DNA of 60,696 bases from an uncultured Chloroflexota bacterium. GTDB taxonomy: Bacteria > Chloroflexota > Limnocylindria > P2-11E. Of this stretch, positions 41,345 to 60,696 are shown piece by piece. Position 1 is the first letter of the stretch. The number at the start of each line of letters is the position of its first letter. Location of the stretch: contig CAZSRI010000001.1 in the NCBI GenBank assembly GCA_964609145.1, positions 21,651 through 82,346 of the forward strand. The letters run 5' to 3'. The position numbers were made by a program, and so were the translations under genes. Below the pieces are notes generated by a model. It saw only the letters and a program-made list of their open reading frames with translations. It was not told where the DNA came from and searched no databases.

Positions 41345-41375
41345 CATACCCACCCCCTCCCGGGGAGGGGGTATG
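41345..41375. promoter_or_regulatory. Candidate CsoR operator (G/C-tract pseudo-palindrome flanked by ATAC/GTAT)
   Basis: In CATACCCACCCCCTCCC-G-GGGAGGGGGTATG the core ACCCCCTCCC/GGGAGGGGGT is a perfect 10+10 palindrome. The last 3 nt are the csoR ATG. Confidence 0.5.
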
Positions 41376-41689: not shown

Positions 41690-41890
41690 ATGGCGACCGA
41701 GCTGACGTACAAGGTGCCCGCGATCCACTGCGCGGGGTGCGCCGGAACGATCGAGGAGGCGCTCGAGCCCGTCGAGGGCGTCGAGGGCGCCGACGTGGAC
41801 GTCGAGGCGAAGACCGTGCGCGTGCGCGGCACCGCCGAGGACCAGGTCATCCGCAAGGTCCTCGCCGCTTCCGGGTACCCCCCGGCCTGA
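41690..41890 (+). CDS. copZ: Heavy-metal-associated (HMA) copper chaperone
   Basis: 66 aa with the motif [20 protein letters not shown] lies at 41681-41685. Confidence 0.8.
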
Positions 41891-41894
41891 TGCC

Positions 41895-44189
41895 ATGACG
41901 ACGACGATGGAGCGGGCGCCGCAGGGCGTCCCCGCGAGCGAGGCCGGAACGAAGCGCGACCTGATCGTCACCGGGATGACCTGCGCGTCATGCGTCGCCT
42001 CGGTCGAATCCGCCATCAGGTCGGTGCGGGGGGTCGAGTCCGCCGACGTGAACCTCGCGACCGAGCGCGCGTCGGTCCGCTTCGACGCCGCGCAGGTCGA
42101 GGTCCCCGCGCTGGTGCGCGCGGTCGAGCGCGCCGGTTACGGCGCGCTGCCGGTCGCCGAGGACGAGCGCGAGCGCGCGCTCGAGGAGGAGCGCGAGAAG
42201 GCCGTTCGCGTGAAGCAGCTCGCCGTGCTGCGGCGGCGGCTCGTGATCTCGCTCATCCTCGGCGCGGCGACGATGGCGATCGCCACCGCCGAGTACGTGC
42301 TCCCCGCCCTCAAGGAGGCGGCCTGGAAGCCGTTCCTCATGTTCGCGCTCGCGACCCCGGTGCAGCTGTGGGGCGCGCAGCCCTTCTACCGCAACGCCTG
42401 GTCCGCGGCGCGCCACCGCATGACGAACATGAACACGCTCATCGCCGTCGGCACGACGGCCGCGTACGGCTTTTCGGTGGTCGCGACGTTCTTCCCGTGG
42501 GTCTTCACGAGCGCGGGCCTCGAGCCGCACATCTACTACGAGGTCTCGTCGGTCATCGTCGGCCTCATCCTCCTCGGCCGCTACCTCGAGGCGCGCGCCC
42601 GCGCGCGCACCGGCGACGCGATCCGCGCGCTCCTCGCGCTCGGCGCGAAGACGGCGCGCGTTCGCCGCAAGGGCGGCGTCGAGGAGGAGATCCCCATCGA
42701 GGACCTCCAGGTCGGGGACGTGGTGATCGTGCGTCCGGGCGAGACGATCGCGACGGACGGCGTCGTCCTCGCGGGGGGCTCGTCGGTGGACGAGTCGATG
42801 ATGACCGGTGAGTCGATCCCCGTGGAGAAGGGCCCGGGTGACGACGTCGCCGGCGGCACGATGAACATCACAGGCACATTCCGCTTCCGTGCGACGAAGA
42901 TCGGCAAGGACACCGTCCTCGCGCAGATCGTGCGCATGGTCGAGGAGGCGCAGGCGTCGAAGGCGCCCATCCAGCGGCTCGTCGACCAGGTGTCGTCGGT
43001 CTTCGTGCCGGTCGTGATCCTGCTCGCCACGGCCACGTTCTTCGTCTGGCTCATCTGGGGCCCGCGGCCGTCGCTCACCTACGCGATGACGGCGTTCATC
43101 GCCGTGCTCATCATCGCCTGCCCCTGCGCGCTCGGCCTGGCGACCCCGACGGCGATCATCACCGGGACCGGCCGCGGCGCGACGCGCGGGATCCTCATTC
43201 GCCACGCGCAGGCCCTCGAGCAGGCGCAGGCGGTCCGCATCGTCGCGTGGGACAAGACCGGCACGCTCACCGTCGGGCGGCCGCAGGTGACCGACTTCCT
43301 CGGCTGCGCCGACGTGGGCGACGACGAGGCGCTGCGCCTCATCGCGTCGGCGGAGCGCGTCTCCGAGCATCCGCTCGCGGCGGCCGTGGTCGAGGCGGCG
43401 CGCGAGCGCGGGCTCGCGCTGAGCGAGCCGTCGTCGTTCGAATACACGCCGGGGCAGGGCATCCACGCGACCGTCGACGGCCACGACGTGTGGGTCGGCA
43501 ACCTCGCCTTCACGAAGGGCCGCGGCTGGCAGGACGCGCCCCAGCAGACCCTCGACCGCTACGCGGACGAGGGGAAGACGCCGCTGCTCGCCGCGATCGA
43601 CGGCAAGCCCGGCGCCATCCTGGCGCTCGCGGACGTGCCGAAGGCGGCCGCGGCGGAGGCCATCGCGCAGCTCAAGCGCATGGGCCTGCGCAGCCTGCTC
43701 ATCTCCGGCGACACGACGCGCACGGCTCAGGCGATCGCGAGCAGGCTCGGGATCGACGAGGTCCGCGGCGAGGTGCCGCCCGGAGGCAAGGCGGATCTCG
43801 TCCGCGAGCTGCAGGCCGCCGGCCGGAAGGTCGGAATGGTCGGCGACGGCGTGAACGACGCGCCCGCGCTCGCGCAGGCGGACCTCGGCGTGGCCATGGG
43901 CGGCGGCACGGACGTCGCGATCGCGACCGGCGGCATCGTGCTCGTCGGCGGCGATCCGCGCGGGGTACCGCGCGCGCTGCGCCTCTCGCGGCGTACGCTC
44001 ACCACGATCAAGCAGAACCTGTTCTGGGCGTTCTTCTACAACGTCGCACTCATCCCGCTCGCGGCGGGCGTGGCGTACCCGTTCACCGGATGGCTGCTGT
44101 CGCCGATCCTCGCGGCCAGCGCCATGGCCGTCTCGTCGGTGACGGTCGTCACGAACTCGCTGCGGCTCCGCGCCGCGAAGATCGACTGA
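41895..44189 (+). CDS. copA: Cu(I)-translocating P1B-type ATPase
   Basis: Carries one N-terminal HMA (GMTCASCV), [29 protein letters not shown], plus YN ([10 protein letters not shown]) and M..SS (AMAVSSV) TM signatures of the P1B-1 class. Confidence 0.9.
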
Positions 44190-44413: not shown

Positions 44414-44635
44414 ATGGCGAAGACCCTCGACCCCGTCTGCGACATGATCGTCGACCTCGACGAGCAGCGCGGCAAGGGGCTCACGACCGACCACGCCGGC
44501 AAGACGTACGCGTTCTGCGGCCCGGGGTGCAAGCGCGTCTTCGACAAGGAGCCGGCGAAGTACGCGGCGAAGGTCGCCGAGTGGGAGCGCTCCGGCGGCG
44601 CGACGGCCGGGGGTCAGGGCGAGCACGGCCACTGA
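44414..44635 (+). CDS. YHS/TRASH-domain metal-binding protein
   Basis: MAKTLDPVCDMIVD...GKTYAFCGPGCKRVFDKEPAKY. A GGAGG lies 8 nt upstream of ATG 44414. The frame is also open from ATG 44189, overlapping the copA stop. Confidence 0.7.
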   Translation: MAKTLDPVCDMIVDLDEQRGKGLTTDHAGKTYAFCGPGCKRVFDKEPAKYAAKVAEWERSGGATAGGQGEHGH

Positions 44636-44665: not shown

Positions 44666-45136
44666 CTATTCGACCGTGAGCGGGAGCTTCATCCCGGCCT
44701 CGTAGTGGCCGGGCAGGCGGCAGGCGAACTCGAGCGCGCCCGCGGGGTAGGCCTTGTCGAAGCTGACGTCGAGCGTCCGCGTGGCACCCGCTCCGAGGTC
44801 GCTCTCTCCGATCCTGGCGAGCGCCATCTTGTCCATGGCCGCCATGTCCATCTTCCCCGCGGACATGGGCTGCATGATCATCAGCTCGTGCGCGACCTTG
44901 TCGCCGTTCGTGACCACGAGGCGATAGGCGACGCCCTGCTTGAAGCGCGTCACCGGGGAGTCGACCGCGAAGTTCTTGAGGGTCACGTTGACCGTCGTGG
45001 CGGACGTCCCGGTCTTCGGCGCCGCCGCGGCGCCGCTGTTCGCGCAGCCGGCGACCAGGGCGACGGCCAGCGCGGTCAGGACGGGCCTGAGCGCGCGCCG
45101 CGTCCGGTGGGTCCGGCCGGCGATCGTTCCAGGCAT
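44666..45136 (-). CDS. Cupredoxin-fold copper-binding lipoprotein
   Basis: The lipobox is LAVALVAGC. The C-terminus FACRLPGHYEAGMKLPLTV has the Cys-x-x-x-His-x-x-x-Met type-1-like ligand spacing, with an upstream His in AHELMI. Confidence 0.7.
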   Translation of the reverse strand: MPGTIAGRTHRTRRALRPVLTALAVALVAGCANSGAAAAPKTGTSATTVNVTLKNFAVDSPVTRFKQGVAYRLVVTNGDKVAHELMIMQPMSAGKMDMAAMDKMALARIGESDLGAGATRTLDVSFDKAYPAGALEFACRLPGHYEAGMKLPLTVE

Positions 45137-48026: not shown

Positions 48027-49246
48027 TCGCCTCCCGTGCTCGGCGGCGCCGCCGCGAAGCGGATCCGCAGCGTGTCGCCCTCGAGCTTCGCTCCCTTCGT
48101 CGCGGCGTCCGCGAGGAGCCGCGGCAGGATCAGGTTACGCCGAAAGCCGCCCACTTCCAGTACCAGCTCGTCGGCGTAGCGCGCGATCTTCACCTCCTCC
48201 TTCGTCGCGAACGGCAGCCGCAGCGCGAGCGTGTGCTCGCCGTCGGCCGTGTCGATCGTGTACGGGCGCTCCCGCGAGAAGAAGGCCACAGGGTCGTCGT
48301 CGCCGAACAGCGCGCGCCCCAGCCGCCGGAGCATGTCGAGCCCGACGACCTCCTGCTCGAACATCGGCACGTCGCGGATCGGCACCGGCGCGAACATCTC
48401 GTCGATCGTCGCGCGGTAGCGGCGCTGCGCGTCGCGCCAGCTCTCGAAGTACGGCCCGACGTCGTCGGGGAGCACGCGGTTGCACACGATGAGGTCGGTG
48501 AGGTAGCCGTACAGGTGGAAGTAGGTGAACGCGCGCTGCGATTCCTTGATGACCATCTTCTCGAGGTTCGTGACGACCCGGATCGACGAGGTCATCGGGT
48601 CCGCGAGGAGCGCGCGCATGTGCTCGAGGCGGTGGAACAGCTCTTCGCCCGCGGCGAACACCTCGTCCGTCGGCGAGGGCATGCCGATCGTGCGGCGGAG
48701 CACCGGTCCGGCGATCCGCGCGATGCTCCGCTGGATCGGCATGATCTTCTCGAGCCACCACTTGCCGGCCTCGGGGAGCGAGAGGAGCCGGAGCGTCTCC
48801 CCGGTCGGCGCGGCGTCGACGATGATCACGTCGTACGCGCCCGAGTCGTGGTGCTCGGCGATCCACAGCAGGCTCGAGAGCTCGTCCATGCCGGGGACGA
48901 CGGTCATCTCCTCGGCCATCACCTCGTCGAGACCGCGCCAGCGGAAGACGCTCACGACGTACGCCTGGATCGTGCCCCAGTACTTGCGGATGTTGTGGTA
49001 GACGTCGGACTGCTGGCCCCAGAGGTCCCGCGCGATCCGCACCGGTTCGGGGCCGAGCGCGAGGTCGAACGAATCGGCGAGGCTGTGCGCGATATCCGTC
49101 GAGACGACGATCGTCCGTGCCCCGCGCTCCGCGCACAGGAGCGCGGTCGCGGCGGCGACGCTCGTCTTCCCGACGCCGCCCTTGCCCGAATACACGACGA
49201 TCCGCGCGCTCACCGGCGTTCGTCCCACGGTAACGCGCCGCCGCAT
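48023..49246 (-). CDS. ArsA/GET3-family ATPase with a C-terminal HSP20-like domain
   Basis: The deviant Walker A is GKGGVGKTSVAAA, followed by STDIAHSL and DVIIVDAAPTGETLRLLSLPE. The C-terminal ~90 aa (YTIDTADGEHTLALRLPF...LVLEVGGFRRNLILP) resemble an alpha-crystallin/ArsA_HSP20 fold. The start is ATG 49246 or GTG 49213. Confidence 0.8.
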   Translation of the reverse strand: MRRRVTVGRTPVSARIVVYSGKGGVGKTSVAAATALLCAERGARTIVVSTDIAHSLADSFDLALGPEPVRIARDLWGQQSDVYHNIRKYWGTIQAYVVSVFRWRGLDEVMAEEMTVVPGMDELSSLLWIAEHHDSGAYDVIIVDAAPTGETLRLLSLPEAGKWWLEKIMPIQRSIARIAGPVLRRTIGMPSPTDEVFAAGEELFHRLEHMRALLADPMTSSIRVVTNLEKMVIKESQRAFTYFHLYGYLTDLIVCNRVLPDDVGPYFESWRDAQRRYRATIDEMFAPVPIRDVPMFEQEVVGLDMLRRLGRALFGDDDPVAFFSRERPYTIDTADGEHTLALRLPFATKEEVKIARYADELVLEVGGFRRNLILPRLLADAATKGAKLEGDTLRIRFAAAPPSTGGE

Positions 49247-49341
49247 CTCGCCCACGGGACGCGGTCCGCCACGACACCAGCCCGCTCTCAGCGCGGTCTC
49301 AGCCGCGCTCAAGGGGATCGCCAGCGACCCGTGCGACGCTG

Positions 49342-49812
49342 ATGTCCGTGCCACGGCAGCGTCCGCGCCGCAGCTCCACGCGCCTGGGCGTCCGCGCCGC
49401 CATCTTCGCGGTGCTCGCGTTCGCCCTCGTCGGCGCGGCCGCGTACGCGCTCTGGCCGAAGGAGCGCGCGCTCGTCGAGCTCGGGCCGGCGGCGGTGCAG
49501 GGCACGAAGCAGCAGCCGGACGCGAGAACGACCATCAACATGTCGGGCTTCCGCCCCGCCGACCTCTCCGTGCCCGCCGAGCGCCCCGCGCGGGTCCTGA
49601 TCGTGAACCCGGACAACGGCATGCACAGCGACGGGGCCGGCATCCACCAGTTCGCCATCCCGAAGCTCGGCATCGACGTCAAGGTCCCGCCCGAGACGGA
49701 CCTGCTCGTGACGATCCCAGCGGCGCCGGCCGGCGAGTACTCCTTCTACTGCGACACGTGCTGCGGCGGGAAGGAGAACCCGACGATGCGCGGCGTGCTC
49801 AAGGTGGGATGA
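49342..49812 (+). CDS. Membrane-anchored cupredoxin-like protein
   Basis: The N-terminal TM is AAIFAVLAFALVGAAAYAL. The C-terminus is EYSFYCDTCCGGKENPTMRGVLKV. The stop overlaps the next ATG (ATGA at 49809-49812). Confidence 0.6.
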   Translation: MSVPRQRPRRSSTRLGVRAAIFAVLAFALVGAAAYALWPKERALVELGPAAVQGTKQQPDARTTINMSGFRPADLSVPAERPARVLIVNPDNGMHSDGAGIHQFAIPKLGIDVKVPPETDLLVTIPAAPAGEYSFYCDTCCGGKENPTMRGVLKVG

Positions 49813-50516
49813 GCGGCGTCGACCTGAACCTCGTCACCGTCATAGCCGCTGGCCTCATCGACGGCCTGAACCCGTGCGCGATCGCGGTGCTCCTCGTGTT
49901 CGTGTCGGCGACGCTGCTCGCCGTCGGCGCGACGATGGATGGCCCGCTCGGCGGCCGCCGGCGCGCGCTCTTCCGGGGCGGGGCGGCGTATGTGACCGGG
50001 ATGTTCGTCACGTACCTGCTCATCGGGATCGGCCTCATGGGCTTCGCGAGCGCCCTGCGCCAGGACCACGTCGGCACCAAGATCTTCGCCTTCGTCGCGA
50101 TCGGCTGGAGCGTCCTCGCGCTCCAGGAGGCGCTCCTTCCCGAGCTCGGGGAGCGCCTGCGGATGCCGCCGATGCTGCACGCGAGCGCGCAGCGCTGGGT
50201 CGGCCGCGCGTCACTCCCGGGGCTCTTCGTCGCCGGATCGCTCATCGGGCTCTGCACGGTGCCGTGCTCGGGCAACGTGTACCTCGCGGTCCTCGCGCTC
50301 CTCTCCAGCCGCGCGGATCTCGCGCAGGCCATGGGCTACCTCGTCGTCTACAACCTCGCGTTCGTCGTCCCGCTCGTCGTCCTGCTCGGTGCGGCGGCGA
50401 CGCCGATCGCGATGCGGTCGCTCGCGCGCTGGCAGCTCCACAACCGGGCATCGCTGAAGCTCGCCCTGGGCCTCGTGACCGCATTCGTCTCGCTCGCGAC
50501 GCTCGCGACGATCTAG
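49809..50516 (+). CDS. CcdA/DsbD-family thiol:disulfide electron-transfer membrane protein
   Basis: Six TM helices with the two conserved Cys motifs, LIDGLNPCAIAVLL and GLCTVPCSGNVYL. Confidence 0.75.
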   Translation: MSGVDLNLVTVIAAGLIDGLNPCAIAVLLVFVSATLLAVGATMDGPLGGRRRALFRGGAAYVTGMFVTYLLIGIGLMGFASALRQDHVGTKIFAFVAIGWSVLALQEALLPELGERLRMPPMLHASAQRWVGRASLPGLFVAGSLIGLCTVPCSGNVYLAVLALLSSRADLAQAMGYLVVYNLAFVVPLVVLLGAAATPIAMRSLARWQLHNRASLKLALGLVTAFVSLATLATI

Positions 50517-51326
50517 ATGACCATCGACCTCGACCCGGTCATCGTCCACCTCGGCCCGCTCGCGCTCACCTGGTACGGGGTGGCCGTCGCGATCGCCCTC
50601 GTCGTCGGGGTCGCCGTCGCGATGCGCGAGGTGCGCCGAAAGGGCCTGCCCGCCGCCGAGGTGGAGTCGCTCGCGTTCTGGGTCGTCATCGGCGGGTTCG
50701 TCGGGGCCAGGGCGCTCCACGTCATCGACCGCTGGGACCTCTACGCCGCGCAGCCGCACCTGATCCTCGCCGTCTGGAACGGCGGGCTCGCGATCCTGGG
50801 CGCCGTCCTCGGAGGGACGGTCACCGGCGTCGTCGTCGCCTGGCGCCGTCGCCTTCCGGTGCTGCGCATCTCCGATGCCGCGGCGCCCGGCGTCATCCTC
50901 GGGCAGGCCCTCGGCCGTTTCGCGTGCCTCTTCACCGGCGACGCGGTCGGCCTGCCGACCGCCGGCTTCGGCGTGACGTACCTGAACCCCGGCGCGAGGG
51001 TCCCTCAGCTGGGCGTCGCGTACGAGCCGGTCTTCCTGTACGAGATGGCGTGGGATCTCGGCGTGTTCGCGCTCGTGTGGATCCTGCGCGGCCGTCTCCG
51101 CGTGGACGGCGCGCTCTTCGCCCTCTACCTCACGCTGTACGGCATCGGGAAGTTCCTGCTCAGCTACCTGCGCACCGAGACCGTGTGGGTCGCCGGCCTG
51201 CAGGAGGCCCAGCTCCTCGCGCTCCTCGCGTTCGGCGTCGCGACGGCCTGGGCATGGTGGAGCGTGCGCTCGCGTGCGGCGATCTCGGCGTACGTCGCGA
51301 CCGACGCCGGCGAGGCACGGGCGTGA
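50517..51326 (+). CDS. lgt: Prolipoprotein diacylglyceryl transferase (divergent Lgt)
   Basis: Contains LTWYGVAVAIAL, VWNGGLAILGAVLGG, GQALGRF, FLYEMAWDL and YLTLYGIGKFLLSYLRTE. Several canonical residues are substituted (see findings). Confidence 0.7.
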   Translation: MTIDLDPVIVHLGPLALTWYGVAVAIALVVGVAVAMREVRRKGLPAAEVESLAFWVVIGGFVGARALHVIDRWDLYAAQPHLILAVWNGGLAILGAVLGGTVTGVVVAWRRRLPVLRISDAAAPGVILGQALGRFACLFTGDAVGLPTAGFGVTYLNPGARVPQLGVAYEPVFLYEMAWDLGVFALVWILRGRLRVDGALFALYLTLYGIGKFLLSYLRTETVWVAGLQEAQLLALLAFGVATAWAWWSVRSRAAISAYVATDAGEARA

Positions 51327-51380
51327 GCGAGGTCGCTATCGGTACGGGGGGCGCGGCTCTCCGGATCCGCGAGGCCACGC

Positions 51381-52112
51381 GTGAGCGGATCCGCCGCGAC
51401 ATCGGCGCTACGCGAGACTGACCTCGTCGCGGACCGCTCGCCCGTCGCGGCTCCATCCGACGCTGAGCCGCGAACGAAGCATGCTGTGCGCGTGGCGACG
51501 CCAGACCGGCAGGCGCGCCGCCCACTGCGCGTCAGCGTGGCCGGGGAGGAGCGTCTCGTCGTCGCTTCCTTGCGGACCCTCCTCGCCACGCTCCCAGGGA
51601 TCGATGTCGTGGAGATCCGCGCCGATCTGGTCGTCCTGGCGACCGATGGCGAAAGGGCCGGCCCGTGCGTTCGCGGCGCACGCGAACGCGACACCGGGGC
51701 GCAGGTCATCTGCCTCGCGCGCTCATGGGCATCTGACGAGGCCGCCGCCGCCCTCGAGGCCGGGGCGATCGGGTGCCTGCGCACGGACATCTCGCCCGAC
51801 GACCTCTCGGTCGCTCTGCGCCAGGCGGGACGCGGCGAGATCACGCTCCCGGCCGAGCTGATGCGCGGCCTCCTCACCCCCGCGGCCGCGCCTGCCGCCT
51901 CGGGTCTCGCCGCTCTCAGCGAGCGGGAGGTCGAGGTGCTCGCGCTCGTCGCTCACGGCCAGGCGAACAAGGAGATCGCGCAGCACCTGCTGGTGAGCGT
52001 GCGCACCATCGAGCATCACCTCGAGAGCATCTACGCGAAGCTCGGCGTGCGGTCGCGGACGGAGGCCGCTCTTGTGGCGGCGCGTGAGGGCCGGGCCGCA
52101 CCGGACGAGTAG
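51381..52112 (+). CDS. LuxR-family HTH regulator with a degenerate receiver-like N-domain (start uncertain)
   Basis: The C-terminus LSEREVEVLALVAHGQANKEIAQHLLVSVRTIEHHLESIYAKLGV is a LuxR HTH. The N-domain has VSVAGEERLV where a receiver has the DD pair. No partner kinase is adjacent. Confidence 0.65.
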   Translation: MSGSAATSALRETDLVADRSPVAAPSDAEPRTKHAVRVATPDRQARRPLRVSVAGEERLVVASLRTLLATLPGIDVVEIRADLVVLATDGERAGPCVRGARERDTGAQVICLARSWASDEAAAALEAGAIGCLRTDISPDDLSVALRQAGRGEITLPAELMRGLLTPAAAPAASGLAALSEREVEVLALVAHGQANKEIAQHLLVSVRTIEHHLESIYAKLGVRSRTEAALVAAREGRAAPDE

Positions 52113-52161
52113 GCGATCTCCCCTACTGCAGCAGAGGCGAGCGGCCCTCGAAGCGGAACGC

Positions 52162-52815
52162 GTGCCGACGTACATCCGCTTCGTGGTGACCGCTGCGCTT
52201 CCTCGCACCGCGCCCCGGACGCGCCTCGCCCTGTTAGCGACGATCGGCGACCTGCACGGCGCCGTCGTCGGATACGACCTCGCGCATCTACGCGCTTTGG
52301 TCGAAGAGCTCGAGCCCGATCTGCTCGGCGTCGAAGGCGACGCCGAGACGTGGGCGCGCTCGGAGCGCTCGAGCCTGCCGCCCGAGATCCGCGGCGCCCT
52401 CGTCCCCGCCGCGCGGCGCACCGACACGGTCATCGTGCCGCTCGGCGCCTCGTCGCCGCTCGAGCTCGCCCCGCCCGAAGGAGCGCGCCTCCGAAGCGAC
52501 CTGATCCACGTCGCGGAGCAGCTCTCAACGACCCTGCAGCGCGCGGCCGGCACGGCGGACCGCATCAACCACAGCCTGGTCATCCACGTCTGCGGCGCCT
52601 TGTGCACGCTCGAGACGTGGGCGGCGAGCGACGCCGGACGCCGCGGCTGGGAAGAGACCAACGAGCGGCTCCTCGCGAACCTCCTTGCGGCGGTGCGCCG
52701 TGACCCGGGTCGCCGCGTCCTTGCCGCCGTGCACTGCCGCCGCGTGCACTGGCTCGCCGGTCGTCTCAGCGCCTACGCCGGCGAGATGGAGCTCGTCGGC
52801 TACCGGGACCTCTGA
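52162..52815 (+). CDS. Hypothetical protein (parent copy of the remnant at 54185-54310)
   Basis: ORF in frame with GTG 52162. No family was recognised with confidence. A GDLHG motif lies near the N-terminus. Confidence 0.45.
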   Translation: MPTYIRFVVTAALPRTAPRTRLALLATIGDLHGAVVGYDLAHLRALVEELEPDLLGVEGDAETWARSERSSLPPEIRGALVPAARRTDTVIVPLGASSPLELAPPEGARLRSDLIHVAEQLSTTLQRAAGTADRINHSLVIHVCGALCTLETWAASDAGRRGWEETNERLLANLLAAVRRDPGRRVLAAVHCRRVHWLAGRLSAYAGEMELVGYRDL

Positions 52816-52825
52816 GGGCTCGACG

Positions 52826-53698
52826 ATGAATGACCTCGTCATCGCGGATGCGACCGTCCTGACGGTGGACCGAGATGACCGCGTGCTGCGCGACAGCGCG
52901 GTCGCCGTGCACGAGCGCGAGATCGCGGCCATCGGACCGAGCGACGCCGTCCTCGCCGCGCACCCCGAGGCCGAGCGCATCGACGCCCGCGGGATGGTCG
53001 TGCTCCCCGGCCTCGTGAACGGACACCTGCACGCGTTCACCGCGCTCTACAAGGGGACGATGGTCGGCTTCGGCTTCGAGCGGACCGCCGGCGAGGACAC
53101 CGCCTTCTGCGGCATCGCGACACCGGAGGAGATGTACGCGGCGTCGCGTCTCGCCGCCGTCGAGGCGCTCCGCGCCGGCATCACCCTCACGAACGTCGCC
53201 GGCGACTCCCCCTGCTTCGCCGTCGCGGGCGAGACCGCCCGCGCGTTCGGCGAGGCCGGTCTCAAGGCGTTCGTGCAGACGATGCTTGGCGACCGCCTCG
53301 GCCTCCTCCCGCTCGGCGGCGACGCACAGCTCGCCGAGGCCGAGCGTTCGCTGCGCCAGTGGCACGGCGCCTTCGACGGCCGCATCCGCGTCGCCCCCAG
53401 CCCCGCCGCTGAGTTCACCACGTCATATCGGCTCATGCACCGCCTCGCGGAGCTGGCCGAGCGCGAGGGCCTCGTCACCCACATGCACGTCTTCCCGCGC
53501 TGGCCGATGGGCTTCCTGAGCTGGCTGCTGCGCGGCCGCTCGCCGCTCGGGCTCCTGCGCGGAGGCCATCTCCTGAACGACCGGCTCATCGCCGTCCATG
53601 TCCTGGCGGCCACGCGCGGCGGCTGGGAAGAGGGGACCGCACATGTGCTTCTGGCAGCAGCACCACGCCCTCGAGGCCCGCGGAAGGAGAGCGTCACG
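52826..53698 (+). pseudogene. Amidohydrolase-superfamily enzyme (deaminase-like), 3'-truncated
   Basis: Contains the N-terminal metal motif LPGLVNGHLHA and the mid-protein IAVHVLAAT..EEGTAHV. Similarity stops about 290 codons in, roughly 140 codons short of typical family length. There is no stop codon before the next gene. Confidence 0.55.
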
Positions 53699-54169
53699 AT
53701 GAGTATGGCGGCAAGCTCCATCGCGATCGAGAGGCCCATCGCGGAGGTCTTCGACTACGCCGCGACGATCGCCAATTGGGGTGTCATGCATCCCGCGATG
53801 GCCCGGTACCTGGTGGACCCTCCCGACCATCCGACACGCGTCGGCGAGTCGTTCGTCGAGCACACGCCGATGAAGATGGACATCCTGTGGACGGTCACGG
53901 AGTGCACCCGCCCGACGCGCTGGACGGCGCAGGCGCCGATCGGCACACCAGGCAAGGTCTCCTCTCTGGGCGTATTCACATTCAGCTATCAGCTCGCCGT
54001 GACGGATGGGGGGACGCGCTTCGACATGAGCCTCTCCTTCACACCACGGACCTTCCTCGGGAGGCTGATGGACCTTCTCTTCTTCGAAAGAGAGGACCGA
54101 AAAGACGTGACGATGGCGCTGGCTCATCTGAAACACGCGCTGGAGAACGGAGAGAACGCGTGCCACTGA
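53699..54169 (+). CDS. SRPBCC (START/polyketide-cyclase-like) family protein
   Basis: MSMAASSIAIERPIAEVFDYAATIANW... is a typical SRPBCC opening. The RBS GGAAGGAGA lies at 53682-53690. The gene is in frame with the truncated upstream ORF. Confidence 0.65.
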   Translation: MSMAASSIAIERPIAEVFDYAATIANWGVMHPAMARYLVDPPDHPTRVGESFVEHTPMKMDILWTVTECTRPTRWTAQAPIGTPGKVSSLGVFTFSYQLAVTDGGTRFDMSLSFTPRTFLGRLMDLLFFEREDRKDVTMALAHLKHALENGENACH

Positions 54170-54184
54170 CACTGCCCCGGACGC

Positions 54185-54310
54185 ATGATCAGCCGCACGC
54201 GCCTCGCGCTACCGGCGACGGTCGGCGACCTGCACGGCGCGGTCGTCGGGTACGGCCTCGCGCACCTGCGCGCCTTGGTCGAAGAGCTCGTCGGGTATCG
54301 GGACCTGTAG
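54185..54310 (+). pseudogene. Internally deleted remnant (41 codons) of a paralog of 52162..52815
   Basis: The roughly 100 nt up to 54290 (about 54195-54290) align with about 52215-52310 at roughly 85% identity by hand. 54284-54310 aligns with the last 27 nt of the parent (52789-52815). The junction is at the 7-nt repeat GAGCTCG. Confidence 0.75.
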
Positions 54311-54325
54311 GGAAAGGTGTGAGAG

Positions 54326-55195
54326 ATGCGAAAAGAGGCATTCGCGATGCAGACGGTGGACATCGAGGAGCTGGCCGCGCGCATCGCGGCGCCGTGGAAG
54401 ACCGCCGAAGGGGAGGGGCTGCTCGCGCTGATGCCGCCGATGCTCGAGCTGCTGGCGCGCGGCGAGCCGGTCTCGCCGGAGGCGGTCGCCGGCGCGATCG
54501 GGAGGTCGCCGGAACAGGTGCGCGCGGCGCTGGCGCGGCTCGGCGGCGTGGACTGGGACGAGCGGGGCCGGGTGGCCGGCCTGGGGCTGACCCTGCGGCC
54601 GACCCCGCATCGCGTCGATCTGGCGGGGCGGACGGTGTTCGCCTGGTGCGCCCTGGACACGCTGATCTTCCCGGTGCTGTTGGGGGAACCGGTCGCCATC
54701 GAGTCCCCGTGCCGCGCGACGGGCGAGACGGTGCGCGTCGAGGCCACACCCGACGGGGTCGAGGGCGTGCAGCCCACCTCGGCCGTCGTCTCGGTCGTCG
54801 AGCCGCGGGACCTGGCGGGCCTGCGCGGCGCCCTGTGCGAGAACGTGCACTTCTTCCGCTCTGCGCAAGCGGCATCCGGGTGGCTGGAGCGGCACGCGGG
54901 CGCGCGGCTGCTGCCGGTAGCGGAGGCGTTCCGCCTGGGGCGGCTGGTCGCGGAAGACGTCTTCGATGTCTCCCGGCCGACCGCGAGGTCGTCCACACCG
55001 ATCCCTTCGGCGACGCCCTCGCAGGGCCCTTCGGGCTGCGGGACCGGGATCCGGCTCCGAAAGCCCGACGACGAGCAGGTCAGGGCGACCGTGAGGAGTG
55101 ACGGCGCGGAGGTGGCACCGCCGATCCTGGACCTGGTTCCTCAGCCGGCGCTCAGCCCTTCTCAAGCGCGGGATCGGCTCGAGGGAGGACGGTAG
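54326..55195 (+). CDS. merB: Organomercurial lyase (MerB-like) with a ~75-aa low-complexity C-terminal extension
   Basis: FAWCALDTLIFP holds the Cys/Asp catalytic pair. A second Cys lies in ESPCRATGE and CENVHFF is also present. The tail RPTARSSTPIPSATPSQGPSG... has no family resemblance. Confidence 0.7.
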   Translation: MRKEAFAMQTVDIEELAARIAAPWKTAEGEGLLALMPPMLELLARGEPVSPEAVAGAIGRSPEQVRAALARLGGVDWDERGRVAGLGLTLRPTPHRVDLAGRTVFAWCALDTLIFPVLLGEPVAIESPCRATGETVRVEATPDGVEGVQPTSAVVSVVEPRDLAGLRGALCENVHFFRSAQAASGWLERHAGARLLPVAEAFRLGRLVAEDVFDVSRPTARSSTPIPSATPSQGPSGCGTGIRLRKPDDEQVRATVRSDGAEVAPPILDLVPQPALSPSQARDRLEGGR

Positions 55196-55200
55196 CGGCG

Positions 55201-56301
55201 ATGTCGCTCGCCTTGCGCAACCTCGGCCAAGACCGGACCCGCCTCCTCCTCAGCATCGCCGGGGTGTCGCTCGCGGTCATGCTCGTCCTGCTCCTCTCGG
55301 GGTTCGTCGACGGCATCGACGCGCAGGTCGGCCAGTACGCCGACCGCACGCCGGGGTCGATCGTCGTCGCGCAGAAGGACATCAACACGCTCCTGGTCGC
55401 GACATCGACCCTGCCCCCCGGCGCCGAGGAGGCGGCTCGCGGCGTCGACGGCGTCGCCGACGTCGTGCCCATCGTGTCGCGCATCACCATCCTCGACCTG
55501 CACACGGCCAAGCTCGCCGCGTACCTGATCGGGTACGACGCCGCGAAGGGCGGCGGCCCGTGGCGGATCACCGAGGGGCGGGAGCCCGCCGCCGACGACG
55601 AGATCGTCGTCGACCGTTCGATCGCCGTTCGCCACGGTCTGGCCCTCGGTGGCGACGTCGACGTGCTCGGGACCCGCTTCCGCATCGTTGGCATCTCGCG
55701 CGGAGTGACGACCTGGATGCTGTCGTACGTCTTCGTCCGCCTGAGCGCGGCCGAGACGCTGCTCCGCGCGCCCGGGATCGCCAGCTACCTGCTCGTCTCG
55801 CCGGCCGACGGGACGGACGCGACGGCGCTCCGGGACCGGCTCCGCGCTCTGCCGGGGATGACGGCGGAGCTGAAGCCGGCGATGGTCGAGAACGACCGTC
55901 GCTTCTTCACCCGCTACTTCACTCCACCCATCCGGCTCATGGCGGCGATCGCGTTCCTCGTCGGCGCGCTCGTCGTCGGCATCGTCCTGTACAGCGCGAC
56001 CATCGAGCGCCGGCGCGAGTACGGCGTCCTCAAGGCCATCGGCGCGCGCGGGCGCCTGCTCTACCGCGTCACGCTGACCCAGGCCGCCGTGGTCACGGCG
56101 GCAGGCGCGGCGATCGGCATCGCCGTCGCGTTCGGCGCCGCGCGGCTGATCGTGGAAGCGCGTCCGCAGTTCCTCATCGAGTACACGCTTCCCACGGTCG
56201 CCGCGGCGCTCGCCGCCGGCGGCGCGATGGCGCTCCTCGCGACCCTCCTCCCGGCGCGCGTCATCGCCGCGACGGCACCGGCGGACGTGTTCCGGAGATA
56301 G
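55201..56301 (+). CDS. ABC transporter permease, FtsX/MacB-type (1 of 2)
   Basis: MSLALRNLGQDRTRLLLSIAGVSLAVMLV, then a ~230-aa extracytoplasmic domain and three C-terminal TM helices. Confidence 0.8.
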   Translation: MSLALRNLGQDRTRLLLSIAGVSLAVMLVLLLSGFVDGIDAQVGQYADRTPGSIVVAQKDINTLLVATSTLPPGAEEAARGVDGVADVVPIVSRITILDLHTAKLAAYLIGYDAAKGGGPWRITEGREPAADDEIVVDRSIAVRHGLALGGDVDVLGTRFRIVGISRGVTTWMLSYVFVRLSAAETLLRAPGIASYLLVSPADGTDATALRDRLRALPGMTAELKPAMVENDRRFFTRYFTPPIRLMAAIAFLVGALVVGIVLYSATIERRREYGVLKAIGARGRLLYRVTLTQAAVVTAAGAAIGIAVAFGAARLIVEARPQFLIEYTLPTVAAALAAGGAMALLATLLPARVIAATAPADVFRR

Positions 56302-56305
56302 GCGG

Positions 56306-57418
56306 ATGCTTCTTCTCGCGTTCCGGAACCTCGTGCAGAGCCGCACTCGACTCATGGTGTCCGTCGGCGGCGTCGCCCTTGCGCTCATGCTCATCCTCTC
56401 GCTCGACGCGATCTTCGTCGGCATGGAGTCGGCGCTCACGGCCTACATCGACAAGACGGGCGCGGACGTGTTCGTCGCCCAGTCCGGAGTGCGGAACATG
56501 CACATGGCCGCCACCGCCCCCCCCGCGCGCGCGGCCGACGGGGTGAAGGCGGTCGACGGAGTGGACGTCGTCACGCCGATCGAGTACGAGGCGAACTCCA
56601 TCACGCTCGACGGCCGGGACTTCATCGCCTACCTCATCGGCGTGCCACCCGACGGGGTGCTCGGCCGGCCGACGACGGTCGCCGAGGGGACGGCCGAGCT
56701 CCGACCGGGCCAGGCCATCGTCGACGGAGTGGCGGCGCGCCCCGCGGCGACGGTCGGCGCGGACATGCGCATCCTGGGACGCGACTTCCGCATCGCCGGC
56801 GTGTCGACCGGGCTCTCGAGCATCTTCAATTCCATCGTCATCGTGCGCTCGGACGAGTTCCCGACCTACGGAGCACCGGACACGATCCAGTACGTCCTCG
56901 TCCGCGCGCGTCCCGGCGTGGGCGCGGCGACCCTCGCGTCCCGCATCGAGGAGCAGGTGCCGGGCGTCTCCGCGACGACGCGCCAGGACTTCGGGCGGCA
57001 GGAGATCAAGGTCATCAACGACATGGCGGCCGACATCGTCGCCGTCATGAACGTGATCGGCTTCGTCATCGGCCTCGCCGTCATGGCGCTGACCGTGTAC
57101 ACGGCGACGGTCGCGCGTCGTGCGGAATACGGCGTGCTCAAGGCGCTCGGCGCGACGACCGGACGGCTCTGCCGCTCCGTGATCGCCCAGGCCGCGATCA
57201 CGGTCGTCCTCGGCCTCACGGGCGGCCTCGTCTTCACGCTGATCGTGGCGCTGGCGGCGCCCCGGCTGGGTGTCGCGCTCGCGCTGGCGATCTCGCCCGC
57301 GTCCCTGGCGAAAGCGGCGGGCGTGTCGCTCGCGATCGCCGCGATGGCCGCGGTCCTCCCGGTGCTGCAGATCGCTCGGATCGACCCGGCGATGGTGTTC
57401 CGAAGGAGGCTGGCATGA
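56306..57418 (+). CDS. ABC transporter permease, FtsX/MacB-type (2 of 2)
   Basis: MLLLAFRNLVQSRTRLMVSVGGVALALMLI, with the same architecture as the first permease. The stop overlaps the next ATG (57415). Confidence 0.8.
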   Translation: MLLLAFRNLVQSRTRLMVSVGGVALALMLILSLDAIFVGMESALTAYIDKTGADVFVAQSGVRNMHMAATAPPARAADGVKAVDGVDVVTPIEYEANSITLDGRDFIAYLIGVPPDGVLGRPTTVAEGTAELRPGQAIVDGVAARPAATVGADMRILGRDFRIAGVSTGLSSIFNSIVIVRSDEFPTYGAPDTIQYVLVRARPGVGAATLASRIEEQVPGVSATTRQDFGRQEIKVINDMAADIVAVMNVIGFVIGLAVMALTVYTATVARRAEYGVLKALGATTGRLCRSVIAQAAITVVLGLTGGLVFTLIVALAAPRLGVALALAISPASLAKAAGVSLAIAAMAAVLPVLQIARIDPAMVFRRRLA

Positions 57419-58338
57419 CCACGACCGTTCCCGCTCCGACGACGAGCGCCCCGACCCTCCGGGTCAGCGGCGTCACCAAGCGCTACGGCGAGGGCGCGAC
57501 CGAGGTGCTCGCCGTCCGTGACGTCTCGCTCGAGGTCGCGCCCGGCGAGATCGTCCTGATCATGGGTCCCTCCGGATCCGGGAAGACGACGCTCCTGCTC
57601 ATGCTCGGCGCGCTGCTGCGTCCCTCGGCGGGCACGATCCAGCTCGACGGGACGGTGCTGACCTCGCTCGCGGAAGGCAGGCTCCCCGACATCCGCCTGC
57701 GACGCTTCGGGTTCATCTTCCAGGACTTCAACCTGCTGTCGGCGCTCACCGCTCTGCAGAACGTGGCCATCGTGGCGGAGATGGCGGGGGCGCGTGGCAA
57801 GGAAGCTCGTGCTCGGGCAGCCAAGATCCTGACCGAGCTCGGCCTCGGGCAGCGGCTGCGCTTCCTCCCCGAGAAGCTCTCCGGGGGCGAGAAGCAGCGC
57901 GTCGCCATCGCGCGGGCGCTGGTGAACGATCCGACGTTCATCCTCGCGGACGAGCCGACCGCCAACCTCGACTCGAAGATCGGCCACGAGATCATGCGGC
58001 TCCTGCGCCGGGTCGCGAAGGAGCAGGGGCGCTCGATCGTCATCGTGTCACACGACCAGCGCATCAAGGACATCGCCGACCGCGTCCTCTGGCTGGAGGA
58101 CGGCGCCTTCAAGGAGGCGACGGCGATGGTCGTCGACCCGGTGTGCCAGATGCGCGTCGAAGACGACACCGCGGTGCACGCGGTCTGGGACGGCGAGCGC
58201 TTCAGCTTCTGCTCGCGCGGCTGCCGCGACGAGTTCCTCGCGGCGCCCTACCGCTCCTTCGCGGACGCGGAGGCGTCCGGACGGCACCGGGCGGCACTGC
58301 GCGATGCGGTCCGTCACGAGGCGGTCCTCGAGCGATGA
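57415..58338 (+). CDS. ABC transporter ATP-binding protein (MacB/LolD-like NBD) fused to a C-terminal YHS/TRASH domain
   Basis: Contains GPSGSGKTTLL, LSGGEKQRVAIARAL and ILADEPTANLD. After residue ~235 comes VVDPVCQMRVEDDTAVHAVWDGERFSFCSRGCRDEFLAAP. Confidence 0.8.
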   Translation: MTTTVPAPTTSAPTLRVSGVTKRYGEGATEVLAVRDVSLEVAPGEIVLIMGPSGSGKTTLLLMLGALLRPSAGTIQLDGTVLTSLAEGRLPDIRLRRFGFIFQDFNLLSALTALQNVAIVAEMAGARGKEARARAAKILTELGLGQRLRFLPEKLSGGEKQRVAIARALVNDPTFILADEPTANLDSKIGHEIMRLLRRVAKEQGRSIVIVSHDQRIKDIADRVLWLEDGAFKEATAMVVDPVCQMRVEDDTAVHAVWDGERFSFCSRGCRDEFLAAPYRSFADAEASGRHRAALRDAVRHEAVLER

Positions 58339-58366
58339 CGCGCGACGCTCGCCGCTCGGCCGCCGC

Positions 58367-58693
58367 ATGAGCTGGGCCGCCATGCCTGGGTCCGAGCGCG
58401 CGCGGCGGTCGGCCGACGGAACGCAGGAGGTGCGGGTCGTCGTCGAGGGGGGGTACCGACCGTCCCGCATCGAGCTCGAGGCGGGCGTGCCGGCCGTCCT
58501 GCGCTTCGAGCGCCGAGAGGACGACCCCTGCACCGAGCTGCTCGTGTCGGAGCTGTGGCCGAGCACGCATCGCCTGCGCGCGCATGCCGAGACCGAGATC
58601 CGCTTCACGCCGCAGCGTCCCGGCCGCTACGCCTTCACGTGCGGCATGGGCGTGTACTCGGGCGAGTTCGTCGTCCGCGGCGGGCGGTCCTGA
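58367..58693 (+). CDS. Small cupredoxin-like domain protein
   Basis: VRVVVEGGYRPSRIELEAGVPAVLRFER...RYAFTCGMGVYSGEFVV. The start is uncertain because the ORF is open from 58304. Confidence 0.55.
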   Translation: MSWAAMPGSERARRSADGTQEVRVVVEGGYRPSRIELEAGVPAVLRFERREDDPCTELLVSELWPSTHRLRAHAETEIRFTPQRPGRYAFTCGMGVYSGEFVVRGGRS

Positions 58694-58833
58694 CGCGGTC
58701 CACCGCTCGGCCCCGCGTTCCTCAGGGAGCTCTCAGCACGGTCCCAGTGGCACGCAAGCGATGACCGCGACGCTCTTGACCGAGCGGGTGGAACGCGACC
58801 CAGCATCCGCGCCGCCAACGAGGAGGCACACAC

Positions 58834-60696
58834 GTGAGCATCGCTGAGACGAGCCGAGCGTCGGTCATGACAGTAGAGCGACCCGAGGCGGTCGCGCCGG
58901 CCGGCGCGAGCGACGCGGCCGCTGAGAGCGAGCGCGAATACCGGCGGCTCATGCGCAGGTGGTGGTTCGGGGCCGCCGTCGGCGTGCCCACGATGCTCCT
59001 GTCGTATCCGTGGCTGCTCCCGGTCCTGCGCGACGTCTTCCCGCGAGGGAGCGTGGCGCTCCATCACCTGTGGGTGGTCATGGGTATCGCGAGCCTCGCC
59101 GTGCTCGCGTACTCGGGGAGCCAGTTCTTCGTCGGTTTCCTCGAGAGCGTCAAGCACCGCTCGGCGACGATGCACACGCTCATCGCCATCGGCACGGGGA
59201 CGGCGTGGGCGTACTCGACGGTCGCGCTCCTGGCCCCGCAGCTCTTCCCCTCCGCCGAGTTCACCGACGTGTACTACGACGTCACCGTCGTCGTCACGGC
59301 CCTCGTGGTCCTCGGGATGGCGATGGAGATCAGGGCGCGCGGCCGCACGAGCGAGGCCATCAAGAAGCTCATCGGTCTCCAGCCGCGCACGGCGCGCGTC
59401 ATCCGCGACGGCGCCGAGGAGACCGTGCCGGTCGAGGACGTGCGGGTCGGCGAGCTCGTGGTCGTGCGTCCGAGCGAGCGCATCCCGCTCGACGGCGCCA
59501 TCGTCAGCGGCTCTTCCGCGGTCGACGAGTCGATGCTCACGGGCGAGTCGATGCCGGTCGACAAGGCCGTCGGCGACGAGGTCATCGGCGCGACGATGAA
59601 CACCCTCGGCTCCTTCACCTTCCGCGTGACGAAGGTCGGCGCCGACACCGCGCTGGCGAGCATCGTGCGCCTCGTCCAGGACGCGCAGGCCACGAAGGTC
59701 CCGATCCAGCGGATCGTCGACCAGGTGAGCCGCTTCTTCACACCGATCGTCGTCATGCTCGCGGTGGCGGGCTTCGTCGTCTGGTACGACCTCGGTCCGG
59801 CGCCCGCGTTCGCCTACGCGACGATCGTCATGGTCACGACGCTCGTCATCGCGTGCCCGTGCGCGCTGGGCATGGCCACGCCGATGTCGCTCACGACGGG
59901 GATCGGCAAGGCGGCGGAGCACGGCGTGCTCATCCGCTCCGGCGAGGCGCTCCAGGGCGCGCAGCGCCTGGACACGGTCGTCCTCGACAAGACCGGGACC
60001 ATCACCAAGGGCGAGCCCTCGCTCACGGACGTCGTACCGTCGTCCTTCGACGAGCGCGAGCTCCTCCGGCTCGCCGCGAGCGCCGAGGCCGGGAGCGAGC
60101 ACCCGCTCGGCCAGGCCATCGTCGCCGGCGCCCGCGCGCGCGGCATCGAGCTCGCCGCCGCCGGGTCCTTCGCCGCCGCGCCCGGCGGCGGGATCGACGC
60201 GGTCGTGGACGGGCGCGACGTCCGCATCGGCAACGAGCGCTACCTCCGCGAGTCGGGCGTCGACCTCGAGGGGCTCCCGGCACCGTGGGCCGTCCTCGCG
60301 GAGGAGGGCAAGACGCCGATGTACGTGGCGATCGACGGGAAGGCCGCCGGCCTCGTGGCGGTCGCCGACACCATCAAGGAGGACTCGGTCGCCGCGATCA
60401 AGCGTCTGCGCGCGCTGGGACTCGAGGTCGCGATGCTGACCGGCGACAACAAGCGCACCGCGAACGCCATCGCGCGCCAGGTCGGCGTCGACCGCGTGCT
60501 CGCGGAGGTCCAGCCCGGCGAGAAGGCGCTCGAGGTGCGCAAGCTCCAGCTCGAGGGCAAGCGCGTCGGGATGGTCGGCGACGGGACGAACGACGCTCCG
60601 GCGCTGACGCAGGCCGACGTCGGCTTCGCCATCGGCTCCGGGACCGACGTGGCCATCGAGGCGGCGGACGTGACGCTCATCGGCGGGAGCCTCAAG
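58834..60696 (+). CDS. P1B-type heavy-metal ATPase lacking an N-terminal HMA domain (3' end beyond the window)
   Basis: Hand translation from GTG 58834 (AGGAGG RBS at 58821-58826) gives [28 protein letters not shown] and GDGTNDAP. The protein enters the TM region after ~40 aa with no CxxC motif. The frame is open to the window end and is absent from the ORF track. Confidence 0.85.

Follow-up and report, generated by a model that had tools for sequence, protein, structure and literature searches.

What does a row of five genes do in which an FtsX-type ATP-binding cassette (ABC) machine with a metal-binding tail on its motor runs directly into a copper chaperone and a copper pump? The question is raised by positions 55201-60696 of a 60,696-nucleotide stretch of DNA from an uncultured member of the Chloroflexota (hereafter the window), which is the final 60.7 kb of contig C1 and ends where the contig ends. 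The contig belongs to a metagenome-assembled genome (MAG) of 2.5 Mb in 193 contigs (72% GC, 87% complete), and the close matches that carry a name are MAGs of Candidatus Limnocylindria, in the phylum Chloroflexota. The reading that we favour, with a probability of roughly 0.6, is that the window carries an accessory copper island in which a Cu(I)-gated, YHS-tailed type VII ABC machine accompanies a CupA-type chaperone and its Cu(I) pump, and in which the five-gene layout is secondary. A first-pass annotation, made from the letters alone, had described five head-to-tail genes on the + strand, with a YHS domain on the ATPase, a stand-alone cupredoxin and a pump without its own HMA domain. The open reading frame coordinates and Pfam matches bear this anatomy out, and the features are as follows, in positions of the window.

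55201-56301, + strand: FtsX1, 366 residues, four transmembrane (TM) helices and an extracytoplasmic MacB-like domain
56306-57418, + strand: FtsX2, 370 residues, a paralogous permease and presumed heterodimer partner of FtsX1
57415-58338, + strand: ABC ATPase with YHS tail; nucleotide-binding domain (NBD) at residues 1-234, YHS at about 238-280, then a C-terminal helix
58123-58260, + strand: YHS/TRASH module inside the ATPase gene, with invariant ligand residues
58339-58420, + strand: junction 1, where relatives have a response regulator, a histidine kinase and, in three of four, a chaperone TM helix
58367-58693, + strand: CupA-type cupredoxin in soluble form, 108 residues (129 residues if it starts at ATG 58304)
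58694-58833, + strand: junction 2, a 140-nucleotide spacer where relatives have HMA (L001, L005, L006) and DUF2933 (L001, L005)
58834-60696, + strand: copper-type P1B ATPase without N-terminal metal-binding domain, 621 residues, 3' end cut

The FtsX1 stop at 56301 is followed by the FtsX2 ATG at 56306, an ATGA overlap at 57415-57418 links FtsX2 to the ATPase, and the ATPase stop at 58338 is followed by an ATG at 58367, although the start of the cupredoxin is uncertain between this codon and ATG 58304. A GAGGAGG motif lies 7 nucleotides upstream of the GTG of the pump at 58834. Because the spacing is so tight a single operon is likely, on the evidence of gene spacing alone. A consensus scan of 53900-60696 found no promoter or terminator, a result that is uninformative in DNA of 72% GC, and a scan of 49000-60696 against Rfam found no RNA family. 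The antisense open reading frames in this region are the usual shadows of high-GC genes. The five genes are the 3' end of a larger accessory copper-resistance island that starts near 41.4 kb.

In the trio of permeases and motor, FtsX1 matches the Pfam families MacB_PCD (58.5 bits) and FtsX (47.7 bits), FtsX2 matches FtsX (42.7 bits), and the two are 33% identical to each other. An AlphaFold2 (AF2) model of FtsX2 (pLDDT 84.6, pTM 0.73) has TM1 at residues 13-44, a beta-rich domain at 55-225 and then TM2-4, which is the type VII layout. Foldseek matches this model to MacB, LolE/C, HrtB, Spr0695, YbbP, YtrF and BceB at 14-18% identity, with E-values of 7e-19 to MacB and 7e-16 to HrtB and a TM-score (TMq) of 0.68 to Spr0695. 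The ATPase matches ABC_tran at 117.9 bits, its catalytic motifs are intact (Walker A at 51, signature at 155, Walker B ILADEPT at 176, H-loop at 211), and its NBD is 36-43% identical to those of MacB, Spr0694, YbbA and LolD. The best NCBIfam matches of the ATPase are DevA, LolD, MacB and FtsE, all below their cut-offs. Membership of the named families was rejected on the same grounds for LolCDE (TIGR02212 19.7 bits against 362.45; TIGR02211 211.4 against 307.75), for MacB (PRK10535 36.7 and 207.6 bits against 966), for DevABC (DevA 240.8 bits against 295.8; DevC 34-38 against 290) and for FtsEX, where both FtsE and FtsX fall under the curated cut-offs. Since all curated family cut-offs are missed, the trio is, by sequence comparison, a distinct family within the type VII (MacB-fold) ABC superfamily.

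What sets the motor apart is its tail. The YHS domain (Pfam 33.8 bits against a cut-off of 30.3) is joined to the NBD by a linker of about three residues, and in the AF2 model beta strands at 238-265 and a helix at 268-276 follow directly after the NBD. Residues D241, P242, C244, M246, F265, C266, G269 and C270 do not vary among 49 to 74 homologues, and the Asp and three Cys of this set (D241, C244, C266, C270) are invariant in 49. No solved ABC chain in the PDB comparison covers the YHS tail. The first-pass annotation had also known of no described precedent for the composition, and in our search of the open-access literature no publication turned up on an FtsX-type ABC system with a fused YHS domain.

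The permeases likewise hold a small set of conserved residues. FtsX1 conserves H101, H145, GGGPW at 117-121 and M247; in FtsX2, V62, N64, H66, M67 and M240 are invariant and R63, D239, M248 and N249 nearly so. The AF2 model places the FtsX2 residues in the loop that follows the first external strand and where TM2 reaches the outer face; even the distant permeases of Rhodococcus and Thermococcus have a His that matches H66 in position. Judged from the model, these residues may form a membrane-proximal external metal site. A single-chain homologue with two tandem FtsX units (P0121, 753 residues) was also observed, which lends support to a heterodimer of FtsX1 and FtsX2.

To place the trio among its relatives, a scan with one genome per species was made, giving 80 related loci (designated L001 and so on). 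The order FtsX-FtsX-ABC/YHS is complete in all 69 of those with at least 2.3 kb of upstream DNA. No membrane-fusion protein gene was found in the window, L001, L003 or L004. Over 100 database clusters are 73-85% identical to the motor, and almost all of them have YHS; that range of identity holds across Chloroflexota classes and falls to about 70% in Meiothermus and Calidithermus. The loci come mostly from Chloroflexota (Limnocylindria, Anaerolineae, Ktedonobacteria, Dehalococcoidia and Chloroflexia), and Meiothermus hypogaeus DSM 23238 and Calidithermus chliarophilus DSM 9957 are cultured carriers. The FtsX2 family has 225 representatives at an E-value of 1e-30 among 1.84 billion proteins. 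Occurrence is patchy, for the trio is present in 13 of 301 sampled Chloroflexota species and in one of six genomes of the same genus, and the trio is therefore an accessory module and probably a mobile one.

The company that the trio keeps ties it to copper. Neighbours were counted in the 51 loci whose context past the trio amounts to 10 kb or more (821 kb in total), a copper gene being defined as one for a P1B ATPase, Cupredoxin_1, HMA protein or multicopper oxidase at most 10 kb from the trio. By this definition one or more copper genes accompany the trio in 36 of the 51 loci: P1B ATPases occur in 26, Cupredoxin_1 proteins in 24, HMA proteins in 12 and multicopper oxidases in three. DsbD_TM proteins and Lgt were each found in 13 loci, response regulators in 21 and histidine kinases in 20. 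The 821 kb around the trio hold 33 P1B genes (one per 25 kb), as against six P1B genes or fragments in the 2.5 Mb of the whole genome, which is itself pump-rich, so that P1B genes are enriched about 17-fold around the trio. A same-strand P1B gene adjoins the trio directly in eight loci, upstream in six and downstream in two, and elsewhere such genes lie on the opposite strand. Because these arrangements differ, the linkage between trio and copper genes has outlived repeated rearrangement.

The linkage also reaches beyond the Chloroflexota. Distant FtsX/ABC homologues (31-33% identity) lie on two plasmids, pRWAY03 of Rhodococcus sp. WAY2 and a plasmid of Thermococcus peptonophilus. The pRWAY03 island (L085, 138882-157766) has a single FtsX and an ABC ATPase with a YHS tail, in a cultured and tractable relative, and its neighbours are two lgt genes, lnt, two TlpA, CcdA, ResB/CcsB, CbtA/CbtB, DUF305 and a BlaI/M56 pair. 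On the Thermococcus plasmid the neighbours are two P-type ATPases, a TRASH protein, a CcdA-like protein and a thioredoxin. The first-pass annotation had named two findings that would count against its proposal, namely that the genes are transcribed separately and never co-occur elsewhere, and that the ABC system clusters with lipoprotein-release or antimicrobial-peptide exporters unrelated to metals. The copper genes recur as described above, and the ABC system lies under the cut-offs of the lipoprotein-release, macrolide, heterocyst and cell-division families; neither objection therefore applies. The five genes as a fixed unit fared less well, as only the three ABC genes are invariant among the related loci.

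Downstream of the trio, the small cupredoxin matches Pfam Cupredoxin_1 at 56.6 bits, and phmmer aligns about 88 residues of it to the N-terminal domain of Streptococcus pneumoniae CopA (4f2f, E 2.5e-14) and to CupA (2mry/4f2e, E 2.7e-14). Its Cys...Cys-Gly-Met ligand pattern aligns with that of CupA; both Cys and the first Met correspond, and the second Met is replaced by Val (CGMGV in the window against CGMGM in four orthologues), a change unique to the window chaperone. The protein is 73-82% identical to its orthologues in L001, L005, L006 and L018. No signal peptide and no TM helix were predicted from either start codon. An N-terminal TM helix is present in the L001, L005 and L018 orthologues and absent from the window, L006 and L028, and the anchors of the relatives have positive-inside topology. 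A secreted blue-copper electron carrier was considered and rejected, given the missing signal peptide and the homology to CupA, which is cytoplasmic. Fu et al. reportedly found in 2013 that the membrane anchor is important in pneumococcal CupA. Pneumococcal CupA, a cytoplasmic Cu(I) chaperone tethered to the membrane, passes its copper to CopA, and resistance depends on the Met-rich S2 site of CupA (PMC7558416). According to a 2020 review, CupA is confined to a few streptococci; CupA-type chaperones beside copper pumps are nonetheless common in Chloroflexota, mostly in anchored form (L001, L005, L018, L004 and L028), and thus common outside streptococci.

The pump matches Pfam E1-E2_ATPase and Hydrolase and scores 473.8 bits against TIGR01511 (cut-off 397), and it has the motifs TGES, CPC (residue 341), DKTGT and GDGTND. 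Pfam finds no HMA domain in it, an N-terminal element that CopA-type pumps usually have but can do without. A hidden upstream HMA was also considered and rejected, since only 140 nucleotides separate the pump from the cupredoxin stop and its reading frame opens at 58780. The pump is 80-83% identical to those of L001 and L005, the two full-length ones, and the alignment begins at about residue 67 of the L001 pump, past its HMA. The contig end cuts the protein at residue 621, before the metal-specificity motifs of TM5 and TM6. A 90% identical fragment on contig C39 has ...IYN... and ...AMSFSS..., matching the YN and MSFSS that Cu(I) pumps carry. The last 747 nucleotides of C1 (window 59950-60696) overlap the end of C39 (about 17958-18705) at 89.7% identity, and C39 continues with the pump C-terminus and then a downstream cupredoxin. 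Either C39 derives from a variant strain or the island is present in two copies, and the overlap probably explains why the assembly breaks here.

The first-pass annotation had taken the cupredoxin to stand in for the missing HMA of the pump. This idea is not upheld: the protein is a homologue of CupA, and its orthologues accompany HMA-bearing pumps too. Within the pump orthogroup the N-terminus may be nothing, a degenerate HMA, or a YHS and two HMA domains, and anchor, HMA and YHS are gained and lost freely within one orthologous group of pumps and chaperones.

How the compact layout arose can be read from the closest relatives of the window locus (L001, L005, L006 and L018), where the order is external cupredoxin, DsbD_TM, Lgt, FtsX, FtsX, ABC/YHS, response regulator, histidine kinase and CupA-like chaperone. 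A P1B pump follows the CupA-like gene in L001, L005 and L006, and no pump was detected downstream in L018. DUF2933 before the pump and a further Cupredoxin_1 after it were detected in L001 and L005, and the HMA-like domain of the relatives (L001, L005, L006) is degenerate and retains one Cys only (ADCGSE, LSCASE). Of this order the window has preserved the first six genes. According to a DNA alignment with L001, it is without the response regulator, the histidine kinase and the TM helix of the chaperone at a junction near 58339-58420, a loss of about 2.3 kb compared with the closest relatives, and it is without DUF2933 and HMA at 58694-58833. The parsimonious reading of this pattern is deletion. 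The ATPase, cupredoxin and pump thus abut because the response regulator, kinase, anchor, DUF2933 and HMA have been lost relative to these loci, and the five-gene arrangement is a secondary compaction. The pumps of L028 and L080 also lack HMA. In L028, from another Chloroflexota MAG, ABC/YHS, a CupA-like protein, a His-rich DUF2933-like peptide and an HMA-less pump follow one another with no two-component system between them, and this locus is an independent near-copy of the compact composite.

The two-component genes of the relatives bring in a different explanation, namely that the trio is the sensory partner of a neighbouring kinase in the manner of BceAB-BceS and that the window copy was orphaned when its kinase was lost. 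A response regulator lies directly downstream of the trio in six loci and a histidine kinase directly upstream in four, adding to the frequencies given above, and BceB and BceA are among the fold and sequence matches. However, BceB is a single chain of 10 TM helices with another external domain and a far lower score (TMq 0.35-0.38), and the L001 kinase, at 462 residues with HAMP, HisKA and HATPase_c, has the usual layout of a kinase equipped with a membrane and sensor part of its own. In over half of the loci no two-component genes lie near the trio, and it is intact where there are none, as in the window and L028. We therefore consider a sensory role of this kind improbable.

Upstream of the trio, the remainder of the island and the block next to FtsX1 comprise the following features.

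41373-41681, + strand: CsoR-family repressor (Pfam Trns_repr_metal), the start of the island
41889-44189, + strand: CopA with HMA (Pfam E1-E2_ATPase and HMA)
44414-44635, + strand: stand-alone YHS protein (Pfam YHS)
44666-45136, minus strand: blue-copper-like protein with a lipobox (LVAGC) and a C-x2-H-x4-M end; no Pfam match
49342-49812, + strand: membrane-anchored Cys-rich Cupredoxin_1 protein (Pfam), with a C-x2-CC motif and a positive N-terminus (domain outside)
49809-50516, + strand: DsbD_TM/CcdA-like protein (Pfam), its start overlapped by the cupredoxin gene
50517-51326, + strand: Lgt, an extra copy (Pfam), abutting the DsbD_TM gene
51381-52112, + strand: GerE/LuxR-type regulator (Pfam GerE)
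52072-52815, + strand: open reading frame for a 247-residue protein without Pfam match
52827-54169: frame with a truncated amidohydrolase (profile 1-194 of 345) and a complete SRPBCC/Polyketide_cyc2 domain
54326-55195, + strand: MerB organomercurial lyase (NF033555, 225 bits against a cut-off of 200)

The island also encodes a LuxR-type response regulator with its kinase and an ArsA-like ATPase. Homologues of the lipobox blue-copper-like protein were seen near the trio in L025, L051, L073, L055 and L006. The triad of cupredoxin, DsbD_TM and Lgt directly precedes the trio in L001, L005, L006 and L018, with DsbD_TM and Lgt 72-87% identical, and the cupredoxin and DsbD_TM recur in many other loci, including Meiothermus.

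Lgt in this position suggests another possible role, in which the trio would serve lipidated or anchored cuproproteins as a Lol-like or maturation machine and move no ions itself. The lipoproteins with bound copper, or anchored cupredoxins, that it would extract, release or load would be made with the island Lgt and kept reduced by the DsbD_TM protein, and YHS would tie the machine to the copper load. Two FtsX permeases with one ATPase is the layout of LolC/LolE/LolD, and LolE and LolC are among the top Foldseek matches. Lgt is present in the 13 of 51 loci counted above and immediately precedes the trio in the closest relatives, lnt and two lgt genes lie in the Rhodococcus plasmid island, and the window itself encodes a lipobox protein (44666-45136) and an anchored Cys-rich cupredoxin (49342-49812). 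On the other hand, Lgt is absent from most loci, the scores for LolCE (19.7 bits against 362) and LolD (211 against 308) are well short of their cut-offs, and the best TM-scores are to Spr0695 and HrtB and not to LolC/LolE. Chloroflexota are, moreover, generally regarded as single-membrane bacteria, and we know of no LolA/LolB pathway in them. Taken together, these data make a Lol-like machine unlikely, though it is the strongest competitor of the copper-gated machine that we prefer.

Between Lgt and FtsX1 lie 3.9 kb that the closest relatives do not have, and the DNA upstream of FtsX1 gave no usable similarity in comparison with the relatives. MerB ends 5 nucleotides before FtsX1 and has C108, D111 and C171, with a spacing equal to what we take to be that of C96, D99 and C159 in the MerB of plasmid R831b. 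No MerB exceeds the cut-off in any of the 40 relatives, this genome being the sole one among 41 to carry it, and MerB is absent from all 84 related loci used for this comparison. Its homologues have 217-231 residues, and about 70 C-terminal residues of the window protein occur in no homologue. MerA lies on contig C47 (3248-4651, minus strand), where it adjoins another P1B ATPase. From these comparisons MerB reads as a recent foreign insertion and not as a part of the module, and the amidohydrolase-SRPBCC frame is probably a gene fragment fused by the event that brought MerB in. A role of the module in mercury handling was considered unlikely, given that MerB is missing from the 84 loci and 40 relatives and that MerA is on another contig. 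The GerE regulator and the 247-residue protein differ from MerB in this respect, for the pair stands directly upstream of the trio in L014 (6352-7608), L050 (3-860), L057 (578-1611) and L076 (5923-6922), and the 247-residue protein alone does so in L021. The pair may thus be an alternative set of native neighbours or regulators of the trio.

The insertion and the deletions could also mean that the window copy is a decaying remnant, poorly expressed or non-functional. It shows three losses compared with most of the four closest relatives, its chaperone alone has Val for the second Met, a truncated amidohydrolase-SRPBCC frame lies just upstream, and the MerB frame runs about 70 residues past all homologues. 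Arguing against decay are five intact frames that have all catalytic motifs and a third-position GC of 0.91-0.96 in FtsX1, FtsX2 and the pump. In addition, both states persist elsewhere, the chaperone being anchor-less in L006 and L028 and the pump HMA-less in L028 and L080. We regard a remnant as the least probable of the explanations considered.

If the window does encode a Cu(I)-gated machine with its chaperone and pump, the parts might work together as follows. From what is known of the families, the CupA-like chaperone would deliver Cu(I) to the P1B pump, and the pump would export it across the membrane. The ATPase would act as a dimer, each subunit with its own YHS Cys3 domain, beneath a presumed FtsX1/FtsX2 heterodimer. 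By analogy with the Mycobacterium phlei cyclase and with MetN and ModC, the YHS tails would bind cytoplasmic Cu(I) and switch on ATP hydrolysis. More speculatively, the FtsX pair would work mechanically at the outer face, where the invariant His and Met lie, and remove copper or hand it on. We infer copper as the YHS ligand, the gating of the ATPase and the nature of what the machine moves from these analogies and from gene company. The relay of the first-pass annotation, with sensing by YHS, export by the pump and clearing of the envelope by the ABC machine, is plausible as an inference from such analogies. Its more specific version, a two-motor relay for a monoderm cell in which CopA exports Cu(I) and the Cu(I)-gated ABC machine strips copper from the outer leaflet or from anchored Cys-rich cupredoxins and expels it, is a tentative proposal that we would not yet favour. 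If true, it would be a monoderm counterpart of CusCFBA and would give a type VII ABC system its first metal-ion substrate.

Several points weigh against the copper-gated reading as a whole. The window chaperone, having no anchor and Val in place of the second Met, may be impaired, as far as can be judged from its sequence. The external domains of the FtsX permeases are overall not rich in Met, His or Cys and have conserved positions at only a few sites. The YHS/TRASH tail could bind other soft metals (Ag, Hg) or hold zinc in a structural role. Since the loci share ancestry, the counts given above are not independent events and overstate independence, and the assembly around the 3' end is uncertain. 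Finally, 13 of the 51 loci, L003 for example, have no gene of the copper-island set (P1B, Cupredoxin_1, HMA, multicopper oxidase, DsbD_TM or Lgt) within 10 kb.

The last of these points also favours the view that the trio is a general extruder of drugs, peptides or hydrophobic compounds that hitch-hikes in metal islands, its YHS tail being a structural zinc ribbon. Most characterised monoderm type VII systems do handle peptides, heme or lipophilic compounds, to judge from PDB titles. This view has difficulty with the roughly 17-fold enrichment of P1B genes in many arrangements around the trio, with the same linkage in Actinomycetota and Archaea and with the invariant Asp/Cys3/Met ligand set of YHS; a YHS tail is, furthermore, known to turn on another enzyme with copper (PMC4626032). 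A general extruder is accordingly quite unlikely in our estimation, and the copper-gated machine remains the reading that we prefer.

Among known systems, the type VII machines MacB, LolCDE, HrtBA, Spr0693-0695, YbbAP, YtrEF, BceAB and FtsEX resemble the trio in their four-TM FtsX domain with a large external domain between TM1 and TM2, and LolCDE also in having two different permeases for one ATPase. The trio differs from the solved members in that its permeases are only 14-18% identical to theirs, its ATPase is YHS-tailed, it has no membrane-fusion protein and its context is copper. To our knowledge, type VII machines act on antibiotics, peptides, lipoproteins, heme and cell-wall control and not on metal ions, and we know of none that is gated by a metal-binding domain on its motor. 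The YHS-tailed trio, accompanied by copper pumps, chaperones, thiol-redox proteins and Lgt in several phyla, points to an unstudied copper-handling step at the outer face of the membrane, one that is testable in cultured carriers (Meiothermus, Calidithermus and, with the single-permease form, the Rhodococcus plasmid). For a regulatory domain behind the NBD, the importer ATPases MetN, ModC and MalK provide a precedent, having an extra post-NBD domain that binds ligand and tunes the ATPase, and MetN is among the NBD matches. These importers, however, are inhibited by their own substrate and have a domain of unrelated fold, whereas the trio, an exporter-type machine, would be activated.

For the tail itself the closest parallel is the class IIIc adenylyl cyclase of M. 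phlei, which has a C-terminal YHS domain and is turned on by 1-10 uM copper (PMC4626032). The two are alike in carrying YHS on a very short linker at the C-terminus of a nucleotide-using enzyme, and differ in that the enzyme is a cyclase in one case and an ABC NBD in the other. The chaperone and pump form a known kind of partnership, that of CupA and CopA in S. pneumoniae (4f2e, 2mry, 4f2f; PMC7558416, PMC5646241), where the gene for a cupredoxin-fold chaperone likewise lies directly upstream of that for the pump. The orthologues in the relatives share the N-terminal anchor of CupA; the window copy lacks it and has Val for the second Met. Pneumococcal CopA has a cupredoxin N-terminal domain, whereas the window pump has none and its orthologues have HMA, YHS and HMA, or nothing.

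The FetMP-FetABCDEF system of Campylobacter jejuni combines two FtsX-type permeases, both required, with one ATPase, a YHS domain and thiol-redox proteins (PMC10783030). It differs in that its YHS is on the membrane protein FetA and predicted to be periplasmic, and in that its task is iron uptake, together with an FTR1 permease and P19. A tblastn search with FtsX1 against 72,556 plasmids at E 1e-5 recovered no enterobacterial FetMP plasmid, which is a weak test of a sequence link to Fet. With its parallels to the FtsX-FtsX-ABC/YHS order and the accompanying DsbD_TM protein, the FetBCD transporter of this system, taken with FetA and the thioredoxins, is nevertheless the nearest studied architectural analogue of the trio.

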